A DNA stretch of 64,000 bases from Candidatus Bathyarchaeota archaeon (GTDB lineage: Archaea; Thermoproteota; Bathyarchaeia; Bathyarchaeales; Bathycorpusculaceae). The stretch spans positions 64,001 to 128,000 of the forward strand of contig CAVRFW010000005.1 in the NCBI GenBank assembly GCA_963720565.1, read 5' to 3'. Below the pieces are notes generated by a model. That model had not been told where the DNA came from and searched no databases. It saw nothing but the letters and a program-made list of their open reading frames with translations. Position 1 is the first letter of the stretch. Each line of letters starts with the position of its first letter. Shown piece by piece: positions 1 to 24,128 of the stretch. Position numbers and translations under genes: made by a program.

Positions 1-20
1 ATTGTTGTAGGCATAAAAGG

Positions 21-1331
21 TTGACTGCAGAGCGAATTTCTTGTATCGTTCGCGACTCTGCAGGTAAAACAGAATTGCAGTATACAACAGGTTCAGAACC
101 CTCGGCTCGAAGGATGTTTGTTCCATCTTTGACAGTGGCTTTTTTCTCAACCATGATTATGGAAACCATAACCAGCATCTTCTTACTGGATGTTACAGCA
201 TCTTTCTTTGGGACTACAAATCCTGTTTCAATAGCGACAACAGGTCAGTTGGTCACTCTCTCAGGTATTGTCTCCATCTTCTTCGGAGTGCTGCTAAGTG
301 TTCTAACGGTCAAGTATGATCATAAGAAACTGCTGCTAGGTGGCGTTCTAGGAATCACATTAGGAACTGTAGGCTGTTTCTTAGCGCCTAATTTCATGTA
401 TCTTCAGGTCTTTTATTCTATGGAGGGAATTGGCACAATAATAGTCAACACAATGGCGTTCGCATTGATCGGTGAATTCTTAGTCTTGAACAAGAGGCCG
501 AAGGCTACTGGATGGGTAATTGCAGGAGCATCAATTGCAGGCATTGCCTCTGCCATTGTGGTTAATTTCTTCTTCTCAGGTGTGGAAGGTTGGCGTTCTT
601 TTCTGCTGTGGTTCGCATTGCCAGTCTCCTTGATTGCTTTGGCTGCTACATTCTTTGGTGTTCCCTCGGCTCCCCAAAAACCGAGTGTGACTACTGGAGA
701 GAGATCTTACTTAAGCAGTTTTAAACAGGTTTTTCTGCAGAAATCGGGTGCTGCCTGCCTGGCTGGCAACTTATTGAGACAAACAGCGGTTGGGTATGTG
801 GTTATCTATTCGGCAACCTTTTTCAGGACGCAGTTTGGGCTGTCCGTTAGCGACGCTGCATTATTCGTATTGGGCATAACTACAGTTTTCACGATAGGTT
901 CCGTCATAGGGGGGCATTTGGTGAACAGAATTGGACGCAAACGTCAACTAGTAGCGGTTTTAATCATAGCTGCTCCCTTTCTGTTAGTCGTGCCCTTTAT
1001 GCCGATTCTGTGGATCGCTGTTGCTCTGCATTACGTGTTCTATTTCATCTTCAGCCTGAGCAATTCTCCTAACATCAGTTTGACTCTTGAACAGGCACCT
1101 GAATCTCGAGGAACGATGATGTCTATGAGCACTATCTTCATAACCATTGGATTCCTCGTGGCAGCTGGTGTGGGCGGAGCTGCCCTTGTCCTGGCAGGCT
1201 GGACAGGAATGATTCTCGTCTTCGTTGCATTGGAACTCATCTCAGCTGCCATCTTCTCCTTCTTAACCAAAGACCCATGCAGAACACAATCAAAAAGATG
1301 GCTCCAGTCGGGAAACCACGCGCGCGTTTAA
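21..1331 (+). CDS. MFS transporter
   Basis: About 12 hydrophobic segments; MFS-like loop motif 'GHLVNRIGRK'; start uncertain (TTG 21 or ATG 114). Confidence 0.85.
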   Translation: MTAERISCIVRDSAGKTELQYTTGSEPSARRMFVPSLTVAFFSTMIMETITSIFLLDVTASFFGTTNPVSIATTGQLVTLSGIVSIFFGVLLSVLTVKYDHKKLLLGGVLGITLGTVGCFLAPNFMYLQVFYSMEGIGTIIVNTMAFALIGEFLVLNKRPKATGWVIAGASIAGIASAIVVNFFFSGVEGWRSFLLWFALPVSLIALAATFFGVPSAPQKPSVTTGERSYLSSFKQVFLQKSGAACLAGNLLRQTAVGYVVIYSATFFRTQFGLSVSDAALFVLGITTVFTIGSVIGGHLVNRIGRKRQLVAVLIIAAPFLLVVPFMPILWIAVALHYVFYFIFSLSNSPNISLTLEQAPESRGTMMSMSTIFITIGFLVAAGVGGAALVLAGWTGMILVFVALELISAAIFSFLTKDPCRTQSKRWLQSGNHARV

Positions 1332-1335
1332 AAAA

Positions 1336-1414
1336 TGGCGGGCCCGCTGGGATTTGAACCCAGGACCTCCGGCTCCGCAGGCCGGTGTCATAATCCGTAC
1401 TAGACGACGAGCCC
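1336..1414 (-). tRNA. tRNA-Arg(GCG), CCA encoded
   Basis: Reverse complement GGGCTCG...CCGGC-CTGCGGA-GCCGG...GGGTTCAAATCCC...CGGGCCC-G-CCA folds as a cloverleaf. Confidence 0.95.
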
Positions 1415-1418
1415 CCAT
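1394..1418. repeat. att-like direct repeat copy 1 (tRNA-Arg 5' end/D-arm)
   Basis: tccgtactagacgacgagcccccat matches 13121-13145 at 22/25, with a 12-nt identical core. Confidence 0.75.
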
Positions 1419-1433
1419 GGATGGACTATGGTA

Positions 1434-1863
1434 CTAACTTCCTAAATATGAAGTTTTTAGTTTTCGGAACAGTTTTGCATCGTCGATTTCGGTGACGTAT
1501 TGGAATCCGGCTTCTATTAGCTGTGTGGCTTCCTCAATTGTCTTTGCTGCTTTGCAGATGTATTCTTCGTTTTGCGGTAGCGCAAGCAATTGAGTATAGC
1601 GCAGGGTCGTTTTTAGGTTTCTGTGCCCGAGGAGTTTTTGGACGTACAGGATGTCTTTGGTTTTGGCGTATTCTGTGGTTGCTTTCCAGTGTCGAAGAAT
1701 GTGGAAGTGGATTTGAGCAGCCTGGGGTTTTGGAGTTTGAATGCCGTTCGTTTCCTCCGTTTTCTAAATGTCCTTTCCACGTTTGTGATCGAGTTGTAAT
1801 TCCAAAGTTTGTCTGATTGGCGCGGTTGTGCTGCGAGCATTTTCATCATACGCTAATTGCTCT
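1434..1863 (-). pseudogene. Tyrosine recombinase/integrase, C-terminal remnant
   Basis: Manual translation: ...RKRTAFKLQNPRLLK/(frameshift ~1712)IHFHILRHWKATTEYAKTKDILYVQKLLGHRNLKTTLRYTQL...*; HxxRH, LLGH and catalytic Tyr present, N-terminal half absent. Confidence 0.88.
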
Positions 1864-2073
1864 GCGCGCGCCTATAGGAACGTAAAGAAGCCAGCCTGGG
1901 CTGCGAGCTTTAGCTCAACTGTTCTCATAAGACTTAGCTTATGAAGTCAGAATAGACATGGCGTCTATGATGATATCACGTCAGTATGAAGGGATTTCGG
2001 TTAGGTTCTGTTTTCCCAAGATGATTTGACATTAGATTGCATTCTGAGGCGCCACACAAGAAAATAGCACGCG

Positions 2074-2166
2074 CTATTTTTTGACCTTCTTGTGTGCTGC
2101 ATAGCTTCTTAGATGATACCACAACAGCTTGTCATCTTCAGCTATTTCCCTTTTTTCTTTCACCAT
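2074..2166 (-). CDS. Putative 30-aa small protein (MVKEKREIAEDDKLLWYHLRSYAAHKKVKK)
   Basis: ATG-to-TAG ORF; stop abuts a CGCG motif; no recognisable family. Confidence 0.3.
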   Translation of the reverse strand: MVKEKREIAEDDKLLWYHLRSYAAHKKVKK

Positions 2167-2292
2167 TATTTACGACCAAGTGTCTTTCAACACAAGCGAG
2201 ATAGAAATGGAAAAATTGTAGATCGCGCGCGTAGGGTTTCAACACGATAAGAGGCCGCGGTTACTTATCCAGGGTCATTTTTGCTTTTGAAG

Positions 2293-2701
2293 TTATTCGC
2301 TTTTTGCCTGCTTTGTATCGTGAAGTGTATGATGCTGAGTCGGGGGTTTTATTTCGTCTTTGTTTGCCCCCTTCTCTAGAAGCTCCCGAATACGTTTTAA
2401 CTCAGCCAAAATTTGAAGATCAACATTTTCTGAAGCTGATGACGGTCTTCTCTGACGGTACTTCTCGGGGATATTCTCTTCGGGGGCGGTCTTCTGTTCT
2501 TGGCGGTCTATTCTTAACCCAGCACTCTGCGCAGTAGACAGGGCGATCTCCTGTTGGCTGGAATGGAACTTCACATTCCTTACCGCAGTCAGCGCAAACG
2601 CTTTTATGCATCTCTCTGGAGCTGCGATCGAAACCTTGCCTACCTCTGGGACCGTGGGAACGATCAGAACTTCGCCTCACTTTATAACCCATTTTGTTCA
2701 C
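2293..2701 (-). CDS. CxxC-x17-CxxC domain protein (probable frameshift ~2455 joining two ORFs)
   Basis: CADC-x17-CAEC with 'EVPFQPTGDRPVYC' and RG-rich flanks; overlapping frame gives a helical tail 'LQILAELKRIRELLE'. Confidence 0.8.
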
Positions 2702-2780
2702 TCCTTTTTTCTTAGGTACACCTAGAAGCTAGCTATCCTTTAAGACTTTGTTAAAACGCGCGCTATTAACGTATGAAGCC

Positions 2781-3341
2781 TTATTCGTAGAAAATGAGGT
2801 TTTGCTCCTCCAACATTACGTGAAGCTTACGCACTGAATCATAAACGTCCTGTTCCTTCTTCGCCCCAGTACAAACAAGGCTCCCGCTCGCGAACACCAG
2901 TATAACCACCTTAGGCTCAGTCATCCGGTAAATCAAACCTGGAAACTGTTCCGGTTCATACATGCAGCTTCCAAGCACAGTCACAGCCTTCTCCAAATCA
3001 ACATTTCCACCCAGACTTGCGGAAGCAACAATGTTCACGACCTCGAAGTCCGGCTTGCCGAGGACTATTATTCCACATTTCTTCAGTTCCTTGACAACTT
3101 TCATAACCGCTCCTCGCGCTTCTTTCCCTGACTTCGCGCCAGTACAAACCATCTTTCCAGTGCTAAAAATTAAAATACCCGTTTTAGGCCTCTTCAACCT
3201 GAAAACTAGCCCAGGAAACTGTTCAGGGCGATATTCCACGCCGGGGTATCCTTTCACAACAGCGTTCAAGTCAATTTTCTGGTTCAGACTTGAACAGGCA
3301 ACAACGTTCTGAATGCTTATTACGGCTTCCGTCTTCGGCAT
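2781..3341 (-). CDS. tbp: TATA-box-binding protein
   Basis: Two repeats YRPEQFPGLVFR / YEPEQFPGLIYR, NVVA/NIVA, GKMVCTGAK. Confidence 0.97.
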   Translation of the reverse strand: MPKTEAVISIQNVVACSSLNQKIDLNAVVKGYPGVEYRPEQFPGLVFRLKRPKTGILIFSTGKMVCTGAKSGKEARGAVMKVVKELKKCGIIVLGKPDFEVVNIVASASLGGNVDLEKAVTVLGSCMYEPEQFPGLIYRMTEPKVVILVFASGSLVCTGAKKEQDVYDSVRKLHVMLEEQNLIFYE

Positions 3342-3482
3342 TTGACACCAGCCTTATAGTGTAGGAGATGCTTAAATAGCCTCTATCAGCGTGTTTGGAA
3401 AATGGAAAGGACTTAATGCGCGCGCTTAAATCTATTGAGAAAGAAGCTCTATTTAGGCAGATTTTGACAATTTACCCATGAA

Positions 3483-3677
3483 TTAGCGCACTTTTCGGTA
3501 TCGTTCTTTCTTGAACTGCAGAGTGAAACTGTGTTTTCCCTGCCTTGAGTAGTCTCTGAACTTGGTTTTGCATTTGTCACATATGTAGGCTTTAACGGTA
3601 AACTGACTGAAATGCCATTTTTTGTCGGGTTTAACAATTTCAGTCTGACAGTTCGGACATTTTGTCACAGCAATCAA
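3483..3677 (-). CDS. Small zinc-ribbon protein, Cren7-like chromatin protein candidate
   Basis: CPNC...KPDKKW...VKAYICDKCKTKFR, basic, 64 aa. Confidence 0.6.
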   Translation of the reverse strand: MIAVTKCPNCQTEIVKPDKKWHFSQFTVKAYICDKCKTKFRDYSRQGKHSFTLQFKKERYRKVR

Positions 3678-3836
3678 GATTTGATTACGTCTTTTTTCAA
3701 TTTAAGATTTTGTGGTGCTAGGGGGCGAAGAGCGCGATTGATCGTCCGTCAGGAACCTGAAGCAATTTGATAGAAATTGCGGCAGCAATATTAGGAGCAA
3801 GAGGTTGTTAATGAATAGACGTGAGGAGGGAATTAT

Positions 3837-5492
3837 GTGGCTTATTTAACGCAAACTCAAAGTGGTCAACCTGTGCTTATTTTGAAGGAGGGGACCTCTC
3901 GAAGCAGAGGGAAAGAGGCCCAAAGAAACAATATTATGGCAGCTCGAGTGATAGGGGAAGTTTTGAAGACAACACTTGGGCCGCGAGGCATGGACAAGAT
4001 GCTCGTTGACAGTTTAGGCGACATAACAATAACAAACGATGGGGCAGCAATTCTAAAGGAAATAGATGTAGAGCATCCAGCGGCGAAAATGATGGTAGAA
4101 ATCGCCAAAACTCAGGATGACATGGTTGGTGATGGAACAACAACAGCCGTGGTTTTGGCTAGCGAATTTCTCAAGAAAGCAGAAGAACTGTTGGACCAGA
4201 ACATTCACCCAACCATACTTGTGAGTGGATACCGCAAAGCAGCCCAGAAAGCCATCGAAATCATAGAGAAGAACGCGGTGCCCATCGACGTCGAAGATCG
4301 AAAAATGATGATGAAAGTTGCTTTAACGTCCATGGGGAGCAAAGCCGTGGGCAGCGCTAAAGAGCGCTTTGCGGAAATAGCCATAGACGCCGTCAAGCAA
4401 ATCGCCGAGAAACGCGGAGACAAGATGATTGCAGACATAGACAATATTCAGCTTGTAAAGAAAACCGGTAAGAGTGTTCTCGAGTCCCAGCTAATTAGTG
4501 GAATAATCATTGACAAAGAAGTTGTCCATCCAGGGATGCCCAAGAAAAAGGAGAACTCGAAAATTGCACTCGTAAATTCTGCATTGGAGATTGAGAAAAC
4601 CGAGATGAGCGCAGAAATTCGTATACGTGATCCGAACCAGATGAAAGCGTTCCTAGACCAAGAGGACAGCATGCTCAAAGACATGGTAAACAAGATCAAA
4701 GCCTCCGGAGCAGACATCGTCTTCTGCCAGAAAGGCATAGACGATATGGTTCAACACTACCTATCGCAAGAGGGCATAATGGCTGCTAGACGAATCAAGG
4801 AGTCAGATATGGAAAAGCTCGCGAGAGCAACTGGTGGAAGAGTAACCTCTAACTTGGACGATTTGAAAGCCGAAGACTTGGGCTTTGCCGGTTTAGTGGA
4901 AGAGCGCAAGATCAGCGAAGACAAAATGATCTTCGTTGAAAAATGCAAAGATCCACATTCGGTGGCCATACTCATACGAGCAGGGCTTGAAAGAATGGTG
5001 GACGAAGCCGAAAGAGCAATAATCGACGCGCTGTCAGTAGTCTCAGACGTCACAGAAAACAATAAAATAGTCGCTGGTGGTGGAGCAGTAGAAATCGAAG
5101 TAGCAAAAGAACTGCGCAGATACGCTAACAAAGTCGGAGGCAGGGAACAACTCGCTGTAGAAGCATTTGCAGACGCAATGGAAATAATACCGAGAGCACT
5201 CACAGAAAACGCGGGATTCCAGCCAATAGACGTGCTAATCGATCTGAGAACAGCACACGATAAAGAAGACGGTAAATACAAAGGCTTAAACGTATTCACT
5301 GGAAAAGTCCAGAACAGTCTCGAAAACGGGGTTGTCGAACCACTCGTTGTTAAAACACAAGCTATAAAATCGGCAGTCGAATCCGCAACGATGATACTGC
5401 GAATAGACGACGTAATAACATCCAAAGCACCCAAAGGCGGACCAAGAGGTCCAGGTGGCGGAATGGGCGGCGGCCCCGAAGGGGAAGAATAG
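3837..5492 (+). CDS. ths: Thermosome (group II chaperonin) subunit
   Basis: [26 protein letters not shown], Gly-rich tail. Confidence 0.97.
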
Positions 5493-5660
5493 ACACCCTA
5501 ATTCCTTTATTGTAATAGCAACGTATACTGCTCTGAGGTTAGAGCACTGTGAGAGACGCAGAAGAAAAATATAGCATCTGGTAACAACCCGGAGAAAACT
5601 GAATTTTCTAAATAACAGAGTCAATTCTCGTGGTTGTTAACACGTTCTCTAACACTGTGG

Positions 5661-7301
5661 TTACATACCGCCGTAACCACCCCCTGGCATTCCGCCAGGA
5701 GGCATAGGCGGAGCTTTCATCTTGCCAGAGGCGATGACGTCATCAACCCTCAGTATCATTGTGGTGGCTTCAGTAGCGGATTTGATTGTCTGTTTCTTAA
5801 CAGCCAAGGGCTCGTAAACTTCGAGTTCTCTCATGTCTCTGATTTTGCCTTCTAAGACGTCAACGCCTGCCCATTTTTCGCCCTTCTCATGGCGGCTCCT
5901 AAGCTCTAACAGAAGATCTATGGGATCAAGACCTGCATTTTCACCCAACGTCAACGGCACAATTTCCATAGCCTCGCCGAAACTCCGAACAGCAAGTTGC
6001 TCCCTGCCCGGTAGAGTTTCAGCATAACCCCTAAGTGCTCTAGCCACTTCCATTTCTGGGGCTCCCCCTCCCGCAACAATTTTGGGCACTTGAACAACAT
6101 CGCGGACTACACATAACGCGTCATGAACCGATCGTTCAGCTTCTTCAAGGAAGCGCTTGTCTGCACCTCGTATTAGAATAGCAACAGACCGCGGGTTCTT
6201 GCATCCTTCAATGAAAGTCAACTTATCATCGCCGATCTTCCTTTCCTCAACAACCTCTGCAAAGCCCAGGTCACTTCTTGAGAGCCCTTCTAAATTGGTA
6301 ACGGCCTTTCCGCCGGTTGCCATAGCTAGTTTCTTCACATCCGACTCCTTAACTCGTTGCACCGCCAAGACCCCCTTCCTAGCTAAGAAGTGCTGAACCA
6401 TATCGTCTATGCCTTTCTGGCAGAAAACGACATTAGCGCCTGAGGAAATTATCTTTTCAACCATTGCTTTGAGCATACCCTCCTCTTCCCGCAAGAAAGA
6501 CGACATCTGTTCTGGACGTTCAATGTTGATTTTAGTATCGAACTCGGTCTTCTTAATTTCAAGTGCACTTTCCAACAATGCTATCTTTGCCTTCTCGACC
6601 CGTTTGGGCATGCCTGAATGCACAACCTCCTTGTCAAGAACCACCCCTTCGATGAGCTCGGTTTCAGACATGGATTCACCGGGCTTCTTCTCCACCATAA
6701 TATCGTCCAAGTCTACCGTGAAGTCTTCTCCAACTTTTCTGGCCACATGCAAAACGGCTTCAACAGCTATTTTGGCAAGTTGCTCCTTGCTCTCAGACAC
6801 CAGCTTACTAGCCATAGAGGTAGCAGCAACCTTCTTCAAGAACTCCTTTCCTGTGGGGTTAATTGGAATCGCAATGTTTTCAAGGGTTTCAAGAGCTTTG
6901 TCAGCTGCTTTACTGTATCCTTCAACGATTACTGTGGGATGGACACCCTTGTTTAACAAGTCTTCAGCCTTTCCTAAGAGTTCACCGGCCAAAATGACTG
7001 ACGTTGTGGTTCCATCTCCCACTTCCGCATCTTGGGTCTTGGCGACTTCAACCATCATCTTAGCAGCAGGATGTTCAATATCCATCTTGTCAAGTATTGT
7101 TCTTCCATCACTCGTAATTATTACGTCACCGGAACTATCCACCAACATCTTATCCATTCCTTTGGGGCCTAACGCGCTTTTGACCGCTTCTGCTATCGTT
7201 TTTGCCGCCATAATGTTATTTCGTTGGACATCTCTCCCCGTAGATCTTTCCGACCCCTCCCTCATAATTAGAACAGGTACACCACCTGTTTGCGTAGACA
7301 A
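5661..7301 (-). CDS. ths: Thermosome (group II chaperonin) subunit, second paralog
   Basis: LGPKGMDKML, GDGTTTS, GGM tail; TTG start at 7301 behind GGAGG RBS. Confidence 0.97.
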   Translation of the reverse strand: MSTQTGGVPVLIMREGSERSTGRDVQRNNIMAAKTIAEAVKSALGPKGMDKMLVDSSGDVIITSDGRTILDKMDIEHPAAKMMVEVAKTQDAEVGDGTTTSVILAGELLGKAEDLLNKGVHPTVIVEGYSKAADKALETLENIAIPINPTGKEFLKKVAATSMASKLVSESKEQLAKIAVEAVLHVARKVGEDFTVDLDDIMVEKKPGESMSETELIEGVVLDKEVVHSGMPKRVEKAKIALLESALEIKKTEFDTKINIERPEQMSSFLREEEGMLKAMVEKIISSGANVVFCQKGIDDMVQHFLARKGVLAVQRVKESDVKKLAMATGGKAVTNLEGLSRSDLGFAEVVEERKIGDDKLTFIEGCKNPRSVAILIRGADKRFLEEAERSVHDALCVVRDVVQVPKIVAGGGAPEMEVARALRGYAETLPGREQLAVRSFGEAMEIVPLTLGENAGLDPIDLLLELRSRHEKGEKWAGVDVLEGKIRDMRELEVYEPLAVKKQTIKSATEATTMILRVDDVIASGKMKAPPMPPGGMPGGGYGGM

Positions 7302-7470
7302 ACAACTTCTCCTCCACGTACAATTACTATGACTTGACACAGTAAAAGGTTTCCCAAATTGCCTTTTTCATGACGTGGAAACCTAAGGAATCGTAACAAT
7401 CCAGTGAGAAACAAAAATATTGCATGAAAAAGTGAGTGAGCAAAAAATGTCACTATACCCACTGTATCAA

Positions 7471-8043
7471 CTATTTCACTGTTACTTTGTGCTTTTTAGG
7501 CGCGGGTGCAATCGTCTTCTTTGGGATGCAAACTTCAAGTAATCCGTCCCTGAATGTGGATTCGGCCTTCTCAGGGATTACTTCTTCTGGGAACGACAGC
7601 TGTTTGTAAACATGCGAGTAAGTGCGTTCTCTGACAACAAAGTTCTTCCCCTTGTCTTCCTTTTCAACATCTGTTTCAGCCGAGATTTCGATACCATCCT
7701 TCGTCAGCGCCACGTCGATCTTGTCTTTTGCTACGCCAGGCAGCTCAGCATGCACTACAAACATTTTTCCCTCATCAACCAAATCTACAGTTGCCTCACG
7801 GACCGGAACAACAGGCTCAGCCCTAATCCAATCCCACGGAAAAGCTATACTTTGAGGAAAAGCTATGCTTTCAATGAAATTTCTGCGAAAATTATCCATC
7901 AAATCGTCAAAGGTCGTCAGAACATGAACTGCAGGGATATGCTTAGCAGGAATATGTTTAGCAGGAAGATGTTTTATAGGTTTTACTGCGATTTCAGTTT
8001 TTGTGACCGCCTTCACCGGCGTCTTTTTTTCTTCTTTACTCAT
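7471..8043 (-). CDS. Hsp20/alpha-crystallin small heat-shock protein
   Basis: AELPGVAKDKI, RER, 'FRDGLLEVCIPK', C-terminal V-x-V motif; GAGGTGA RBS. Confidence 0.92.
   Translation of the reverse strand: MSKEEKKTPVKAVTKTEIAVKPIKHLPAKHIPAKHIPAVHVLTTFDDLMDNFRRNFIESIAFPQSIAFPWDWIRAEPVVPVREATVDLVDEGKMFVVHAELPGVAKDKIDVALTKDGIEISAETDVEKEDKGKNFVVRERTYSHVYKQLSFPEEVIPEKAESTFRDGLLEVCIPKKTIAPAPKKHKVTVK
7931..7975. repeat. 3 x 15-bp in-frame tandem repeat in Hsp20 (KHLPA-KHIPA-KHIPA)
   Basis: gcagggatatgctta / gcaggaatatgttta / gcaggaagatgtttt. Confidence 0.85.
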
Positions 8044-8261
8044 TTTTTTCACCTCAATTAATTTATTATTAGTATTCAGTCTTCCTTATTACGTCTGGAA
8101 AAGGAACTTTTTCAACGCCACATTCTGAAACGGGGGGACCTCAGCTATTAGCCCTCACGCGCTCATAGCCTTTAGGTGTTGAGGGCTGGCTGGCTTTCCC
8201 CTACTGCTTTTTCCCAAAGGGACTTAAAATGGAGTTATTTGGAGATAGCGGGGACGTGGGC

Positions 8262-8405
8262 TTACTCGTTTTTGGCAATCCATGTTTTTACTGCTTCTTC
8301 GACGGCTCGGGTTAAGTCGCCTTTTTTCCCGCTGAACCTCTCGATTGTTTTGAACCTGAGCTGTTTCTCCAGCTCGTCTGGAAGCTCCACGCATATACGA
8401 CCCAT
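8262..8405 (-). CDS. Ribbon-helix-helix (CopG/Arc-like) DNA-binding protein, 47 aa
   Basis: MGRICVELPDELEKQLRFKTIERFSGKKGDLTRAVEEAVKTWIAKNE; GGTGA RBS; below ORF-track cutoff. Confidence 0.7.
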   Translation of the reverse strand: MGRICVELPDELEKQLRFKTIERFSGKKGDLTRAVEEAVKTWIAKNE

Positions 8406-8778
8406 TTTTGTTCACCGATTTTTATTTTATCAAGTTTTTTGTGCACGTTTCGACGTGTCAGATGTTTTTCCAATAAGCGAATTGCCAGATACTAATTTTC
8501 ATGTTTGTTTTTGTAATCATTTTTATTCACCTTATTCGCTTATCCACATAATACATAATGTGCATACTTGCTTATAAGGGTATTGATTTATATGTTTACG
8601 CGTGGCGCGTTTATTGGTTTCCCTACGAGTTTAAGGAACTGTTAGAAGAGATTTACCGGAATTATATGGAAAGGAAATAGGTAGCTTGCTTACTCTTAAG
8701 ATTTTCAATCAAAAAGGACTAAATACTAAAGTTGATAACAGCAGTTAACACAGGCAACCGGAAACAAGTGAGAAAAGA

Positions 8779-9015
8779 TTGACGAAAGAATGCAAATTTT
8801 GCGGATGCGAGTTAACTGAGGAAGAAATCGAAAAATACGGTTGTCTGTCAACCGAGGAAGAGGGCATAAAAATTGACACCCCTATATGCCCCGTTTGCGC
8901 TCTGACCAAAACCAAATTGGGCAAGGCAGTACCTGAAGAGGAACGCGAGAAATTCCTAGAAGAGTGGATACGCAGAAAGGTACCACATGAACCACGCGCT
9001 CCAGCCAGTGAGTAA
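8779..9015 (+). CDS. Hypothetical zinc-binding protein
   Basis: CKFC...CPVC. Confidence 0.55.
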   Translation: MTKECKFCGCELTEEEIEKYGCLSTEEEGIKIDTPICPVCALTKTKLGKAVPEEEREKFLEEWIRRKVPHEPRAPASE

Positions 9016-9034
9016 AATTTTTAAAGCGTGCGCG

Positions 9035-9240
9035 ACATAGATAGTCGATTATTTCTTCAACGAACAAGACATAGGTAACAGTTAATCGCAAGTTTGAAGG
9101 GGGACTTTGACAAATGGTTCACTGTTTATGCGGCAAAGACGCTAACGTGTTCGAGAGCGGCAAGACGGAATGTATTGATTGCTACTTGAAGCGGAAAAAA
9201 AGGCTGTAAACGCGGATAGCTGTCCCGAAATCAGTCGCTT
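9035..9240 (+). repeat. ~205-bp module homologous to 23928-24128
   Basis: Visually alignable throughout, e.g. gttaatcgcaagtttga, acgctaacgtgttcga, ctgtaaacgcg. Confidence 0.85.
9114..9209 (+). CDS. 31-aa zinc-finger micro-protein, paralog 1
   Basis: MVHCLCGKDANVFESGKTECIDCYLKRKKRL; conserved with paralogs at 12532 and 24004. Confidence 0.8.
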   Translation: MVHCLCGKDANVFESGKTECIDCYLKRKKRL

Positions 9241-9338
9241 GCGCGCGCGATTCTGTTCAGCTATTATGTTTTTGCGTTTTTCAATGGGACATAAGTGTTA
9301 AACGGCAAACTAACTTAATGCACATTGGAGGGAATAAT

Positions 9339-9791
9339 GTGTATGAAGAGTTCATTGATAAACTGAAAAAGCGAAAAGAAGAGCGTCAAGAAGACTACGA
9401 TCGACTCAAAGGTATGATAGCAGGATTTCGTTTAACCAATTTCAACCAAACAGAAGAGAGCTTAGTTTTAATTGTTGAGTACGCAATGAACAGTTTCAAA
9501 AATCATCAGGATTCTATTGACGCTCTCAAGGAAGCAACAATCTACTCATTTCAAAGACTTGAAACCTTAGAAAAAGAAATGAAACAGTTGAGAGCCACCT
9601 ATGGCATAAAAGGTGTCGCGCACGCTGAAGAGGCAGGAGGCAAAACGAATGAGGGTGCGGGACAATTGAACAGTGGAAAGAAGAATACAGGAGGGGCAAT
9701 CAAAATTAAGACCAAAACAAAAAACAAACCGAAAAACGAAACAAAAAGCAAAACAAAAAACAAAGGAAAAAAGACGTGGAAGCAGCAGTAA
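9339..9791 (+). CDS. Hypothetical coiled-coil protein with Lys-rich tail
   Basis: ORF with GGAGG RBS before GTG; helical N-part, KTKTKNKPK tail. Confidence 0.55.
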   Translation: MYEEFIDKLKKRKEERQEDYDRLKGMIAGFRLTNFNQTEESLVLIVEYAMNSFKNHQDSIDALKEATIYSFQRLETLEKEMKQLRATYGIKGVAHAEEAGGKTNEGAGQLNSGKKNTGGAIKIKTKTKNKPKNETKSKTKNKGKKTWKQQ

Positions 9792-9830
9792 GAAGAATTA
9801 AAGAAAAATGAGCATAAAGAATAATTTCCT

Positions 9831-9950
9831 ATGACAATATTCTCTGAAGACCTGATAGACCAAATCAAAGAACTGCTTGAAAGAGTGGCAGACCCACACA
9901 TAGTTAAAACAAGAGTTAAGTTCTATTCTTTCAAGGAGTTCCTTCAATAA
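9831..9950 (+). CDS. Putative 39-aa protein (MTIFSEDLIDQIKELLERVADPHIV...)
   Basis: ATG-TAA ORF with amphipathic helix; no family recognised. Confidence 0.3.
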   Translation: MTIFSEDLIDQIKELLERVADPHIVKTRVKFYSFKEFLQ

Positions 9951-9985
9951 CAAGTTTATGTTGCCGTCTGCTCTCTAATTGTAGA

Positions 9986-10396
9986 GTGGTGATAAATGTG
10001 AACGCAAAGCAATTCTTCAGAATCGAAGTCAGCACAAGTTGGGGACATTTGATTAGGGAAAGGAAGACGCTGACTAAAGACGAAGAGAAAGTAAGAGAAG
10101 CAAGAAAGGCTTATCGTGATGGAATCAAAAAAGCATGGGACATTTACACCGAAGACAACATGATAGTAAAGGAAGCAAAGAAGACTCTTGACTCAGCAAT
10201 AGACGAAGCATACAAATCCTGCTTGCCCGAACATGGAGAGAGAATGGCACAAACAGAATATGAACAGGCAACCAAACTTTATTTCAAAACTTTATACAAA
10301 GTTCACCGCAAGTTTGCGGATACGATCGGACCAATTTGGGGTGTTTTCATGAAAGACATGGAGACTTCTCCAAGACTAACCAAGAAAAATACTTAG
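9986..10396 (+). CDS. Hypothetical helical protein
   Basis: 136-aa ORF, protein-like composition; start uncertain. Confidence 0.55.
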   Translation: MVINVNAKQFFRIEVSTSWGHLIRERKTLTKDEEKVREARKAYRDGIKKAWDIYTEDNMIVKEAKKTLDSAIDEAYKSCLPEHGERMAQTEYEQATKLYFKTLYKVHRKFADTIGPIWGVFMKDMETSPRLTKKNT

Positions 10397-10651
10397 AAGC
10401 TAAACCAAAACCCTATTCATTCTCCACAGACTCATTGTGCAAGACCATGCGACTTTCAATGGGTATCCGAAAATATCACTCTAAACTATATAGTGGGGGA
10501 AAACCTTCCCCTCAAAATAATTTCGGGAAAAAAGGATTCGCGAATGACATCTCCACCTAGCTTGGAGTTCATATCCCAGCGCCCCTATTGATTGTCAGTT
10601 GCTTTCCGAGATGACAAGTCTAAAGTATGAAATTGCCCGATAGATGTTCTT

Positions 10652-11425
10652 ATGAAAGAAAGAACCAAAACATTACTGATTCTGGTTGTGCTTCTCATAT
10701 GCTCGTTTCTCCCTGTCTTTACGGCATCGCCTTTTCCCCAACAAGACAGCTCACTTGTCATCAAAGAAGTCCTAATGAAGACCTCAGTCGCATACCTGTG
10801 GCTCAGCCCGATCGTACATGTCATTACTGTGGTACTGTTTATCGTTCTTTACCTTTATGGATCCCGAGTAGGCAGAATTGCCGACGTCTTTTTCGCCATT
10901 CTGTTTTTGTTCATTGCCTTCAGCAATCATATCGCTGTCACTGACACTTATGGACTTGCGGTGGTAACAGGAAACCTGGTTCCAATACTAATCGTAGGGC
11001 TCCTCTGGATTTGGGAGGTTTACAGACCTCAGAACAATTATGCTTTCGAGAGGCTTCCAGCGTGGAGATACTGGGTCTTGCCCTTTGCCTTCTTGGCTTT
11101 CTGGTCTCCAATAAACGCACAGCTAAACCCTGATTTCAATCCGTTGTTGCTTCTAAACTCTTCCTTCGGTGTAATGTACTGTCCCACAACACCAGTCATA
11201 ATCGCCCTACTTACTCTACTCTACCCAAGAGTCAACACAATTGTCCTCAGAGCAACCAGTTTTGTGGGATTAATAATGGGTCTGTTCAATGTCATGTCGT
11301 ATTTCATAATGCCAGGATATACCCTGTGGAATCTGGTTCTTCACACGCCACTCATATTTATTTCCCTGTACGGCTTGCTGATCCCAACCTTAGCAAAGAC
11401 TAACCTCTCGCGGCACGCTCGATAA
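10652..11425 (+). CDS. Hypothetical membrane protein
   Basis: Signal-like N-terminus and ~7 TM segments. Confidence 0.75.
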   Translation: MKERTKTLLILVVLLICSFLPVFTASPFPQQDSSLVIKEVLMKTSVAYLWLSPIVHVITVVLFIVLYLYGSRVGRIADVFFAILFLFIAFSNHIAVTDTYGLAVVTGNLVPILIVGLLWIWEVYRPQNNYAFERLPAWRYWVLPFAFLAFWSPINAQLNPDFNPLLLLNSSFGVMYCPTTPVIIALLTLLYPRVNTIVLRATSFVGLIMGLFNVMSYFIMPGYTLWNLVLHTPLIFISLYGLLIPTLAKTNLSRHAR

Positions 11426-11437
11426 CAGAAAGGGCGG

Positions 11438-11913
11438 TCATTTGGGCAAATCATTAGACTGTGCGCTCGTCTTCTTCTTGTTGTATGAGTACTGATAGTA
11501 CCCGTAGGAACTCATCATGACAAAGAAAGCAATCACAAGCATGCTTCCGTAGAGTCGCGACGTCAGGTATCCGTACCAGTTTAGTCCTATGCTGCCAATG
11601 AAGAGAAGTAACAGGTAGATGATGAGACCTGGCGGCCAGCGTTTGGGGTGATGAAGGGGTTTCTTTCTAGTTATCAATCTGTACCAGAGGTCGTAGACCA
11701 AGTAGATGATTATTGGCAGTTCAGCTAGCAAGCGTCCAGAGTCGTTGCCAAAGAGTAAGTTCAATATCCAAAGCAAAGCAAAAGGAATCAGCTGGGCACT
11801 AAATGCGATTCTCAACTTGAGCTCAAACTTCGAGAGTTCACGAGCACGCAGAAGATACACAACAAACAAGAAGGCATAGAAGACCAGTGCGAAGAAAACT
11901 ACAAGGTTGTCTA
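11438..11913 (-). pseudogene. Membrane protein, 5'-truncated at a (CG)n run
   Basis: Hydrophobic frame (LDNLVVFFALVFYAFLFVVYLLR...) extends to the GCGCGCG run at 11914-11920 with no ATG before an upstream stop. Confidence 0.55.
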
Positions 11914-11989
11914 GCGCGCGGTCGTCATTGTGTGCAAGTTGGAGCTACGCCTATTAGTGAGTGTGTTAGTGTGTGTTGCGGTGATTGGA

Positions 11990-12406
11990 ATGAGGGCTGG
12001 TTTGCTCCTATGTAGATATGAGAATGCAGAGGATTATTCTGTTGGCAGGCGGTTTCGCTTTGCTGTTGTTGATTTGGACAAAGGTAAGAATTATCCATTG
12101 AATTTTGTTTGTATGTTGCCGACGAAAATAGAAGCTGCTGGTAAGTCGCAAAGTGTCTTTCTGCAGATATTTGGAGACAAGAGCGTGGAGCAGGCTAGGG
12201 TATTGTTGACTGGGGCTTTGGAGACCGAGAGTGATCCTGAGGTTAAAGCGGAGATTGAAAGAAGGTTGAAGCTGCTTGAAGTTAAACCAATCAGTTAAAT
12301 CGAATGTAGCGCTTGCAGAAAATTGTTTCAGCTTGGGCGAGTGAGAGGGTTTAAGCAGAAATTCTGTCAAGAGTGTGTGAAGGAAAAGTTCGGCAGTCGT
12401 GAATGA
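11990..12406 (+). pseudogene. Hypothetical protein with C-terminal zinc finger, interrupted by in-frame TAA at 12296-12298
   Basis: Same frame continues IECSACRKLF...KFCQECVKEKFGSRE*; GGTGA RBS. Confidence 0.7.
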
Positions 12407-12531
12407 GAAAACCCTCTAACGCGCCAGAAAGCACATAGTAAAATTGTGGCCAAACCCTTGAAGACTTGGCTTTCGACATATGACAACACACACAAGATGA
12501 TTTAAAATGAGGCATTCAAGAACGTCCTATT

Positions 12532-12627
12532 ATGAACGAGAAGTGTAGTTGTGGTTCTTTCCCGAATGTTTGGGAAAACGGAAAACGCGAATGTTCAGAT
12601 TGCTATTTGAAGCGAATTAAAGGGTAG
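12532..12627 (+). CDS. 31-aa zinc-finger micro-protein, paralog 2
   Basis: MNEKCSCGSFPNVWENGKRECSDCYLKRIKG. Confidence 0.75.
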   Translation: MNEKCSCGSFPNVWENGKRECSDCYLKRIKG

Positions 12628-12767
12628 AATCTGAAAAGGGTTGTTCGGGGATTCTGAACCGTTTCGAGTGTGTAAGAGAGTTTTGTAATCCGTGTTTTAG
12701 ATTGCGGTTTGTTTCGGCGTTGAAAAATCATTAATATCGGTTTTAGTCCAACCAGAGAGGCTTCGAG

Positions 12768-12875
12768 ATGGAATGGAGAGTTTTAAACGAAGAATTAGTT
12801 GACTTTCTATCGTGCAAAAGAAAAAGGCGACTCGAAGTCAGGAGCGTCAGGCTTTTGGAAAAGCTAAGGAAATAG
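12768..12875 (+). CDS. Putative 35-aa basic protein (MEWRVLNEELVDFLSCKRKRRLEVRSVRLLEKLRK)
   Basis: GAGG RBS, ATG-TAG; stop overlaps a GCGCGCG run. Confidence 0.4.
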   Translation: MEWRVLNEELVDFLSCKRKRRLEVRSVRLLEKLRK

Positions 12876-13120
12876 CGCGCGGTTACACGTTACCTAGAAA
12901 AACATCCTGTTGATGCGTCAGGTTTGATTCATGTCGGAATGATACGCCTTGAAGTTGAAGCATACAAACCATTCTCAAAAAGCACGCGTGAAGAAACTCG
13001 ATAAACCTAAAGAAACAACGTATAATCGCCAATTTTTGGATTTATGCCAGAAATGGGAAAAAAGGAGAAAAGGGCTGCGGAGAAAACATTATGCTGGCGA
13101 TATCACCCAAGAATGGTCGG

Positions 13121-13145
13121 TCCGTACTAGACTACAGGCCCCCAT
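13121..13145 (-). repeat. att-like direct repeat copy 2: orphan tRNA 5' fragment GGGCCTGTAGTCTAGTACGGA
   Basis: 22/25 identity to 1394-1418; no anticodon or T arm follows. Confidence 0.75.
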
Positions 13146-13266
13146 ACTTTGAGAAGAAATAACTTGTGCTAAAGGATTTAAGGCTTGTTTATTGCGCGCT
13201 TGATGAGGTTATCTGATTTGCCTTCAGTCATCAGAGGTAACTTGAAAGCATCTTTCTGGCAGCATG

Positions 13267-14424
13267 CTATGGAACATAGGCTGAGTTGTTCCAGAAAATG
13301 TATTTGCTGTAGGTGGCGTCTAATGCCAATCCATCATCATATATTATGTCGAGATTGTTCGGGTATTGATCCATCCAATAGTCTAAGCTCGTGCATATTT
13401 CAAGCGAAAACGCATCTGCTTCCCATAACCCCCAGATCCTATCAGTGGGTCCTCTGAGACCGTACCCGTAGTCTTTCGGAAGGACAAAAGCAACCCTATC
13501 ACTGCTTCTCATGCTTCGGTCAGGATTGGCTTCTATGTACCGCCAGAACCGCTTCAAAGCATCAAAGTGTTCCTGTTGGAGAGTGCCATCCGTGTAGTCT
13601 TCATTGCTGTCAAAGACCAAAACGTACTTCGCGCCGCTATCATACGCCATGACAAGGTTCTCGTAGAGATGCTCGCCCGACGAGAGGTATGGAGGTTCGG
13701 TGTATTTCCAAGTTATCATAACACCCCACTCCCTGTTTTGAATTGTGGCTGCTCCCCTGCAGGCAGCTACATTTAACCTTCTGCTATAGTTAAGCGCGAA
13801 TTCTGCGAAGACAACATCATAGCCTGCTCTATAATCGAACCAGTAAAGGGCATAATCAGATGTGAAAGCTTGAACGCCTTCAATCTCGGTCGCATTCGAA
13901 GTAGAGCTCTCCAGCATTTTTTCCAAGTGAGCAACGAACTGGATGCTCGCGTCCGTATAGTTGTCTGCTTCGCGGACGATTCTATATGTCCATAAGTCCA
14001 GGTTCTTCCCGCCGACCTCGTCAAAAACATACAAACCCAAAAAACGGTCGCCCCATTTCACTTTCGCGTTTTCTATCCATTGTCTCGAAGGCTGAGTGGG
14101 AGGATCATGATCATCTGTGAACACGATAAACGATAATCCTTTATCATAAACGTACTGACAAAGGTCAACGAGTTTTGTCTCATTAAAAGTTATGCCAGTG
14201 CTGCCTATAACGAACAGGTTCGTGTATGAACTGACCTCGTCAATCAAAGCCTTAATCTCGACGACGTCATCGTAAGCCGCATCGATTCCAACGTAAAAAT
14301 CTGTGGACCGGTTTGGTCTTGGCTTTTCAGAGGCTAAAAAGAAATTCGCCACGAGAAGAGAAACAATTAGCAAAGATGACAGAAGAAGCAGGAAGTATCT
14401 GGGTTTCATTTGCACCTTAAACAA
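13267..14424 (-). CDS. Secreted/membrane-anchored hypothetical protein
   Basis: N-terminal hydrophobic anchor, 385-aa globular domain with 'GLYVFDEVGG'. Confidence 0.75.
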   Translation of the reverse strand: MFKVQMKPRYFLLLLSSLLIVSLLVANFFLASEKPRPNRSTDFYVGIDAAYDDVVEIKALIDEVSSYTNLFVIGSTGITFNETKLVDLCQYVYDKGLSFIVFTDDHDPPTQPSRQWIENAKVKWGDRFLGLYVFDEVGGKNLDLWTYRIVREADNYTDASIQFVAHLEKMLESSTSNATEIEGVQAFTSDYALYWFDYRAGYDVVFAEFALNYSRRLNVAACRGAATIQNREWGVMITWKYTEPPYLSSGEHLYENLVMAYDSGAKYVLVFDSNEDYTDGTLQQEHFDALKRFWRYIEANPDRSMRSSDRVAFVLPKDYGYGLRGPTDRIWGLWEADAFSLEICTSLDYWMDQYPNNLDIIYDDGLALDATYSKYIFWNNSAYVP

Positions 14425-23897: not shown

Positions 23898-23927
23898 TCA
23901 AAAGGTCAAACTTAAAAGGAGTACCCT

Positions 23928-24128
23928 ACATACATAGCTGATGCTTCTTCGAAGAACAAGAGGCCAAAAACGGTTAATCGCAAGTTTGAGGGGACTCTGA
24001 AAATTGGCTCAATGTTCATGCGGCAAAAACGCTAACGTGTTCGAACGCGGCAAAACAGAATGCATCGACTGCTACCTACAACGAAAAAGAAAACTGTAAA
24101 CGCGTATAGCCTTCAAAATAGGTCGCCT
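23928..24128 (+). repeat. Second copy of the ~200-bp micro-zinc-finger module
   Basis: Homologous to 9035-9240. Confidence 0.85.
24004..24099 (+). CDS. 31-aa zinc-finger micro-protein, paralog 3
   Basis: TTG start; MAQCSCGKNANVFERGKTECIDCYLQRKRKL. Confidence 0.8.
   Translation: MAQCSCGKNANVFERGKTECIDCYLQRKRKL

Follow-up and report, generated by a model that had tools for sequence, protein, structure and literature searches.

The DNA around the 31-codon gene at 9114–9209 clearly exemplifies a GC junction scar of an undescribed kind and is not a neatly bounded mobile unit. Positions are those of the window, the whole stretch of 64,000 nucleotides that was analysed, which is contig C5 of genome G000 from 64001 to 128000, and a run is a short tract of alternating G and C. 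The run on the right of the gene is a true junction and seems to be newly written sequence that closes a DNA joint, while the run on the left is, judging from the aligned copies, part of the gene's own promoter, between the TATA-like box and the leader. Such runs occupy breakpoints, and most run-free homologs lack them; they also occur where the insertion sequence (IS) is missing, and the base at their edge is lineage-specific. Many such scars point to an undescribed way of rejoining broken DNA. The features of the locus are as follows.

8993–8999, no strand: short alternating run in the last codons of an upstream 78-aa ORF, candidate for the real left junction (alignment with locus L077)
9020–9025, forward strand: TATA-like box of an inferred archaeal promoter, at the same position in 27 of 27 pattern-matching copies
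9026–9034, forward strand: left run, a post-TATA promoter segment and no boundary, with 15 variants in 27 copies
9035–9113, forward strand: conserved leader with a purine-rich ribosome-binding stretch at 9096–9103 (aligned among copies)
9114–9209, forward strand: gene of a 31-aa CxC...CxxC microprotein, a predicted treble-clef-type zinc finger (ORF conservation, model)
9210–9236, forward strand: tail resembling a decayed end of a GC-targeting IS (uncertain)
9241–9249, no strand: right run, joint of the gene's 3' tail and an unrelated downstream piece (run-free relatives on both sides)
9617–9625, no strand: next run, right after which a 96% copy of 9626–10427 in contig C13 begins
12532–12627, forward strand: third, more distant microprotein paralog with a different promoter (tblastn and profile search)
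23912–24099, forward strand: paralog with TATA-like box, run-free post-TATA segment, leader and 31-aa ORF (24004–24099, TTG start)

The original prediction had read the two runs as the limits of a moved promoter-plus-gene unit of 205 bp with a second copy at 24 kb, the runs being a target duplication or a product of insertion. Much of its description was confirmed: both copies, the quoted start and end words and the runs at 9026–9034 and 9241–9249 are present in the sequence, and the 24-kb copy lacks runs. BLAST aligned 9012–9220 with 23905–24110 at 76.4% identity (E = 8e-36). The homology stops before the right run as claimed, local alignments ending at 9220 or 9238, i.e. 3–21 bases short of it. 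A start just behind the left run was not borne out. Under four scoring schemes the alignment began at 9012 twice, passing through the left run and the TATA-like box, and at 9053 once, the remaining scheme being too permissive to be informative (it spanned all 900 bases). Since the alignment ends at 9220 or 9238 but starts at 9012, its right end lies at a run and its left end passes through one. The pairwise alignment proposed as a check therefore upheld the right end and contradicted the left one, where homology extending through the run is what the prediction itself had named as speaking against it. Collecting the copies and tabulating their flanks, also proposed, yielded promoter variants on the left and a tail cut at four points, each cut ending in a run, on the right. 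Thus, the idea that the runs delimit junctions survives for the right run, probably created at the joining, and fails for the left one.

A target-site duplication does not fit either, since the two runs differ, only one is new and the other is homologous promoter sequence. Although the homology with the 24-kb copy does end just before the right run, we regard a bounded unit as highly improbable: the left run falls within the homology, no relative is bounded as 9035–9240 on both sides, the 3' boundary varies, and no empty site joining 9025 to 9250 was found among the joints listed for the contigs of four sequencing runs. The 205-bp module was also rejected as a transposon or MITE (ends differing among the 27 copies, variable tail, no target-site duplication). 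The 24-kb copy was rejected as donor, being a diverged paralog with its own relatives (L091, L094 and L095) in the same context.

The function predicted for the TATA-like box is the one known from archaeal promoters. In the promoter table, comprising 27 copies after 31 of the 58 metagenome and other loci were left out (other promoter or too short), the segment behind the box ranges from fully alternating to run-free. The spelling of the window is present in only one copy, and the 24-kb copy has a colinear run-free variant at the position of the left run. Alignments with L067, L077, L078, L082, L086 and L091 cross this run ungapped, and those with closer relatives start at 9011–9012 in three of six pairs, otherwise at 8997, 8989 or 8938. 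The homology between window and L077 reaches back to 8997, and six of 300 shuffles of the upstream sequence extend equally far. The same control with L067 gave 23 of 300, so that support for a junction at 8993–8999 is moderate. Upstream context changes 15–35 bases left of the left run, and L078 has a run just upstream of the promoter. Left contexts were found swapped among haplotypes with the same right allele (L072 vs L075, L073 vs L074), which suggests homologous exchange within the gene.

At the right run, the run-free relative of the left side (L082) continues past the junction and has only one base, G, in common with the run. The relative of the right side (L071) matches 9252–9315 at 92%, with no run ahead of that stretch. 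L067 is identical through the right run and unrelated right after it, indicating that the joint was reused. The length of the right run varies by steps of 2. Among relatives, the 3' tail is cut 11, 24, 46 and 75–78 bases past a common landmark, every cut ending in a run, and in L064, L094 and L095 it continues without one. Genome G002 holds 9015–9594 at 94%, right run and next gene included, and the pieces around this counterpart map to scattered loci of genome G000. The C13 copy of 9626–10427 terminates at another run in C13. For the tail at 9210–9236 there is about an even chance that it is a decayed IS end. It scores 16.7 (rank 13 of 4.18 million positions; 24-kb copy −21) with a matrix derived from 33 IS ends found in other genomes, which gave 0 matches above 12 in 1 Mb of shuffled sequence; this score is post hoc, since the stretch was first spotted by eye.

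Other joints and fragments were observed in the same part of the window. L068 and one contig of sequencing run X1 lack a stretch of 906 bases (10494–11399) that contains most of a membrane-protein gene; both join 10493 to 11400 through six G/C bases, and the gene's last codons lie beyond the joint. A tRNA-Arg(GCG) and, upstream of the 5' end of this tRNA, a broken tyrosine-integrase fragment (around 1.6–1.8 kb) occupy 1339–1860, with a run at 1863. A stretch around 13.12 kb (13110–13145) resembles a tRNA 5' end. Rfam models matched only two tRNAs in the window.

In genome G000, GCGCGCGC is the most over-represented 8-mer (88 vs 14.5). Runs of at least 8 bases lie outside ORFs in 63 of 90 cases, with unrelated flanks; the intergenic count of 63 compares with 5–10 expected, and other dinucleotide 8-mers reach at most about 3-fold. 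Breakpoints were collected from G000, about 0.8 Mb of G002 and G004 and 58 metagenome loci, and 642 raw breaks were condensed to 104 independent clusters. A run was counted within −8 to +12 bases, and the expectation was taken from locally matched positions. Runs were present at 32 of the 104 breakpoints (21 one-sided, 11 two-sided) compared to 10.9 expected, with a maximum of 27 in 100,000 simulations. When 1,889 runs were tested, a run-free homolog was obtained for 58 run sides, 22 of which share no base and 16 a single base with the run. Two findings weigh against reading the runs as filler: 72 of the 104 breakpoints are run-free, and 20 of the 58 sides have at least 2 bases in common with the run-free homolog. 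The polarity is also ambiguous at many sites, as the run-free homolog may have lost a run.

Both parents are represented for only two junctions, the right run of the window and L078, by relatives of 86–93% identity rather than true parents. L078 is a three-way case in which the tail was joined into a TBP gene with 3–4 new bases and both parents are run-free. A conserved gene on contig C2 (L373, G000:C2:62146–62165) features an in-frame insertion of 12 bases, made up of a 7-base duplication around 5 new G/C bases. Direct repeats around runs are not enriched (2 of 194 vs 1.4), and run-only insertions of 4–8 bases were not found among 253 indels; one 4-base indel is located at 11919 in one contig. 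Alleles differing by 2 bases at the same run account for 15 of 20 run-associated indels.

Across 151 genomes the excess of runs is patchy: they number 0–365 copies, and their ratio to control words exceeds 5 in 23 genomes but stays below 1 in 99. The single-contig genomes G119 and G092 (85% and 90% complete) contain 189 and 111 runs, respectively. In 400 kb of G119, tract length ranges from 6 to 22 and no flanking word is common to the tracts. In G000 a run is followed by T in 62 of 99 cases, in G119 by A in 30 of 53 (P = 3e-6), and this difference between lineages suggests that the process is specified by sequence. Another junction motif, consisting of a palindrome around GGAYTAAA..TTTARTCC and TTGG repeats, was seen at 6 of the 72 breakpoints that lack a run and at 7 positions between genes of G000 (sites include G000:C13:126149, C7:98259, C4:38592 and L075).

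We consider it probable, with considerable room for doubt, that the runs are GC filler written at rejoined breaks. According to this proposal, broken or cut DNA in these lineages would be rejoined with about 4–10 bases of alternating G/C written into the joint, and the joining would usually lose flanking DNA and use 0–1 base of microhomology. The scars might later serve again as joints, drift by slippage and transitions, and offer landing sites to an IS5/IS1182-like element. By analogy with archaeal PriSL, we infer that a host end-joining enzyme, most likely of the primase type, writes the runs. A stronger version, in which a dedicated and possibly RNA-templated, telomerase-like enzyme of some archaeal lineages writes a sequence-specified GC tract, and the scars act as reusable joints and safe IS landing sites that drive gene-by-gene reshuffling, is conceivable but rather doubtful; the lineage-specific edge base is what a template would give.

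The IS concerned inserts at GC words. Relatives of an IS found in G000 are almost all named Candidatus Bathyarchaeia, and G000 is accordingly treated as Bathyarchaeia. Among 128 ends called at 80 loci of other genomes, 97 read GCGCGC, and TA is the commonest outer pair (38 of 128); ends were called at 13 of 17 template matches, and a few are probably miscalled. Both ends were called at 54 of the 80 loci, about 1.03–1.3 kb apart. The transposase matches DUF772 above the cut-off and has invariant D, D and E columns (label YREK). With these traits and terminal inverted repeats, the element probably works like an IS4/IS5/IS1182-type DDE transposon. Three full-length proteins stayed below the IS1182 family cut-off (NCBIfam NF033551, 270) with 147.7, 82.6 and 107.5 bits, and the best score for the IS5 family was 83.3 (NCBIfam NF033581, cut-off 140 bits). 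Deviations of the IS ends mostly concern the outer base and are unmatched on the opposite side, which makes a 6-base target duplication unlikely (0, 2 or 4 fit). No empty site was found around two IS copies searched in 26 and 25 genomes. According to the available text of the sources, IS1272/TnSha1 of the IS1182 family targets hairpins of 22–30 bases without sequence specificity and replaces them without duplication (PMC5678879, PMC4923244). The clade described here resembles IS1272/TnSha1 and IS5-group elements in its DUF772 and DDE transposase, short terminal inverted repeats and palindromic targets, but differs from IS1272, as far as described there, in sitting in a fixed 6-base word and scoring below the family cut-offs (PMC5678879, PMC4923244). 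Insertion of IS into existing breaks has been reported, as far as the accessible part of that source goes (10.1101/2024.06.02.596822).

Several minor observations concern this IS. A miniature element of about 160 bases with both IS ends is located at G000:C13:64718–64876 and C9:330311–330587, and in its C9 copy another run interrupts the right end, where a second IS end has been joined on. L212 and L221 hold one GC-targeting IS copy with a 1-kb insertion of other DNA near the left end.

The runs might instead be footprints of an IS5/IS1182-like element that brings in GC-rich ends when it inserts, removes adjoining DNA and, once lost, leaves GCGCGC(GC) behind. The prevalence of GCGCGC at called IS ends is what such footprints would give, and G000 contains one broken, run-flanked DUF772-DDE transposase together with about a dozen IS-end-like sites, of which 9210–9236 may be one. 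One G000 IS end sits where a paralog has GC alone. Furthermore, G070, G066 and G207 have in common one left flank that ends in a run; the IS comes next in G070, whereas G066 and G207 continue with unrelated sequences that also differ from each other, and more distant homologs of the flank have no run. IS ends are thereby tied to junction runs, in a way that fits targeting and footprinting alike. Run excess correlates weakly with the presence of the IS (P = 0.04 when judged by the transposase and 0.006 by the ends), kin not being independent. Against this, no DUF772 or DDE_Tnp_1 match was found in any of five run-rich genomes tested, including the single-contig G119 and G092, although these two are incomplete and may once have had an IS that was later lost. 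Among the 23 genomes most enriched in runs, 18 have neither this transposase nor at least 2 IS ends, and the run ratio is below 1 in 9 of the 16 genomes with the transposase. The absence of run-only insertions of 4–8 bases, the 38 of 58 run-free homologs without even the GC that the IS prefers, and the continuous tract lengths in G119 without a common neighbour also argue against footprints, which we regard as improbable. The clade appears to use the runs and not to be their only source.

Slightly more improbable still are fragile sites, i.e. runs born by slippage from chance GCGC seeds that then became prone to breakage or recombination in a Z-DNA-like manner. The 2-base allele differences at the same run and the 11 of 32 run-bearing breakpoints with a run on both sides are consistent with this reading, but tracts of 6–10 bases are short for Z-DNA. 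As stated in the available text of PMC4060949, alternating purine-pyrimidine tracts can form Z-DNA and promote instability, yet are generally suppressed in prokaryotes. Other dinucleotide repeats lack comparable enrichment, and neither the junctions with two run-free parents nor the in-gene insertion on C2 is expected from slippage of seeds. An integron-like or tyrosine-recombinase system that shuffles one-gene cassettes at (GC)n crossover cores was also considered. Gene-sized pieces are indeed ordered differently in G000 and G002, many of the joints having runs, runs of at least 7 are 15 times denser in 1–13300 than in the remainder of the window, and an integrase fragment and a tRNA lie 7 kb off, the broken tyrosine-integrase fragment being the only integrase seen there. 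However, attC-like arms are missing, and beyond a few IS ends no flanking sequence is common to the runs. One and the same tail has been cut at four points, breaks occur within genes, and most junctions are one-sided, while crossover cores need a site on both partners. This recombinase reading is largely refuted and very unlikely. Compared to these alternatives, filler written at rejoined breaks remains the preferred origin of the runs.

Candidates for the enzyme were compared between run-rich and run-poor genomes. Ku was rejected in a test of five genomes of 85–100% completeness, being present in both run-poor genomes (G113, G020) and in one of three run-rich ones (not found in G150 and G119). 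PolX occurs in one of five genomes, a run-poor one, and the LigD phosphoesterase in all five, which is not discriminating. A 261-aa PriS paralog was rejected as it is present in 59 of 151 genomes of the order and in only 4 of the 23 run-rich ones; no conserved GC tract flanks it. Profile and motif scans for primase-like or template-carrying polymerases returned only PriS, this paralog, the LigD polymerase and one mobile primase. The paralog is encoded at L323:1297–2082 (G000:C5:40625–41410), with ferredoxin, superoxide dismutase-like and oxidoreductase genes as its neighbours. At G000:C3:159.5–162.6 kb (L325, L332, L369), Ku is found together with a LigD-type polymerase and an apparently frame-broken LigD phosphoesterase domain.

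Junctional filler is known elsewhere from the N nucleotides of TdT and the LigD polymerase and from telomerase healing of breaks. The scars resemble these in having new bases at the joint with little or no microhomology. They differ from N nucleotides, which are near random, in being alternating G/C, with Ku not tracking runs in the five genomes, and from telomerase healing in that no RNA template was found here. For Saccharolobus islandicus, primase (PriSL)-mediated microhomology end joining has been described (PMC12019639). As in the available part of that work, the process proposed here would be archaeal double-strand break repair with small insertions and deletions, and primase has terminal transfer activity; unlike there, where no fixed filler is reported, the tract is alternating G/C with a lineage-specific edge base (PMC12019639). 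In its available text, PMC11697101 mentions neither repeats nor transposases. The GC scar was not found in the literature searched, which lies outside supplements and subscription journals. If true, a fixed and lineage-specific scar would allow repair events in uncultured archaea to be read from their genomes, its enzyme could be found by profiling run-rich against run-poor genomes, and it would explain the free shuffling of gene-sized pieces in Bathyarchaeia.

The supposed module is best explained as a small gene of the ordinary kind, with promoter, leader and 31-aa zinc-finger ORF, which belongs to a family of patchy occurrence in Bathyarchaeia and lies in a fast-changing region. G000 features five ORF copies, the one at 12532 of the window among them; the 24-kb ORF and a copy on contig C2 encode an identical protein and have 280 bases in common at 90%. 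The ORF shows 0 stops in 33 distinct cores, with 49 synonymous vs 26 non-synonymous differences, and the four Cys are invariant. The microprotein was modelled as a hairpin plus helix (pLDDT 87), a layout predicted to be like that of treble-clef zinc fingers, with putative zinc binding. The best fold match is a B-box (Z 3.9, rmsd 1.2 over 31 residues), too weak for a family to be assigned. Neither Pfam nor NCBIfam gave a match, and weak leads came from PHROG, PDB sequence and atlas matches (E 0.015–0.07, score 0.87). The family is present in 14 of 401 genomes of the order, all of one family, and at 58 metagenome loci, with one weak partial viral match.

By analogy with Brz, the microprotein, whose tail is basic, may act as a small adaptor or regulator that binds zinc, a role that we find about equally easy to accept or to doubt. 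CPxCG-related archaeal zinc-finger microproteins including Brz are defined, in the available text, by at least one CPxCG, CPxCx or CxxCG and a second Cys/His pattern (PMC2253796). The microprotein is like them in its very small size, archaeal origin, two Cys pairs and basic tail, but its first Cys pair is CxC and the alignment has CxCG and CxxCY. Since CPxCG, CPxCx and CxxCG are all absent, it falls outside the definition as given there (PMC2253796). The microprotein is a new, if modest, addition to the small zinc-finger class of archaea, and its locus is valuable as a well-sampled test, one tail being cut at four points and each cut sealed by a run. A sigma-70 promoter scan of the window, with a model that does not cover archaeal promoters, gave no match.

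The window also encodes a thermosome subunit and Hsp20. Some relatives have and others lack a stretch of about 200 bases (8073–8272) that separates hsp20 from a 47-aa ribbon-helix-helix gene; where present, it is 87–93% conserved, with no folding signal. The part at 8095–8225, conserved and containing a CG word, is not taken for a template RNA, its folding being no better than that of shuffles (z = 0.46). Two convergent, mutually similar long ORFs occupy 3837–7340, one of them being the thermosome subunit, and this block is kept at 87% in G002 and G004 in different surroundings.
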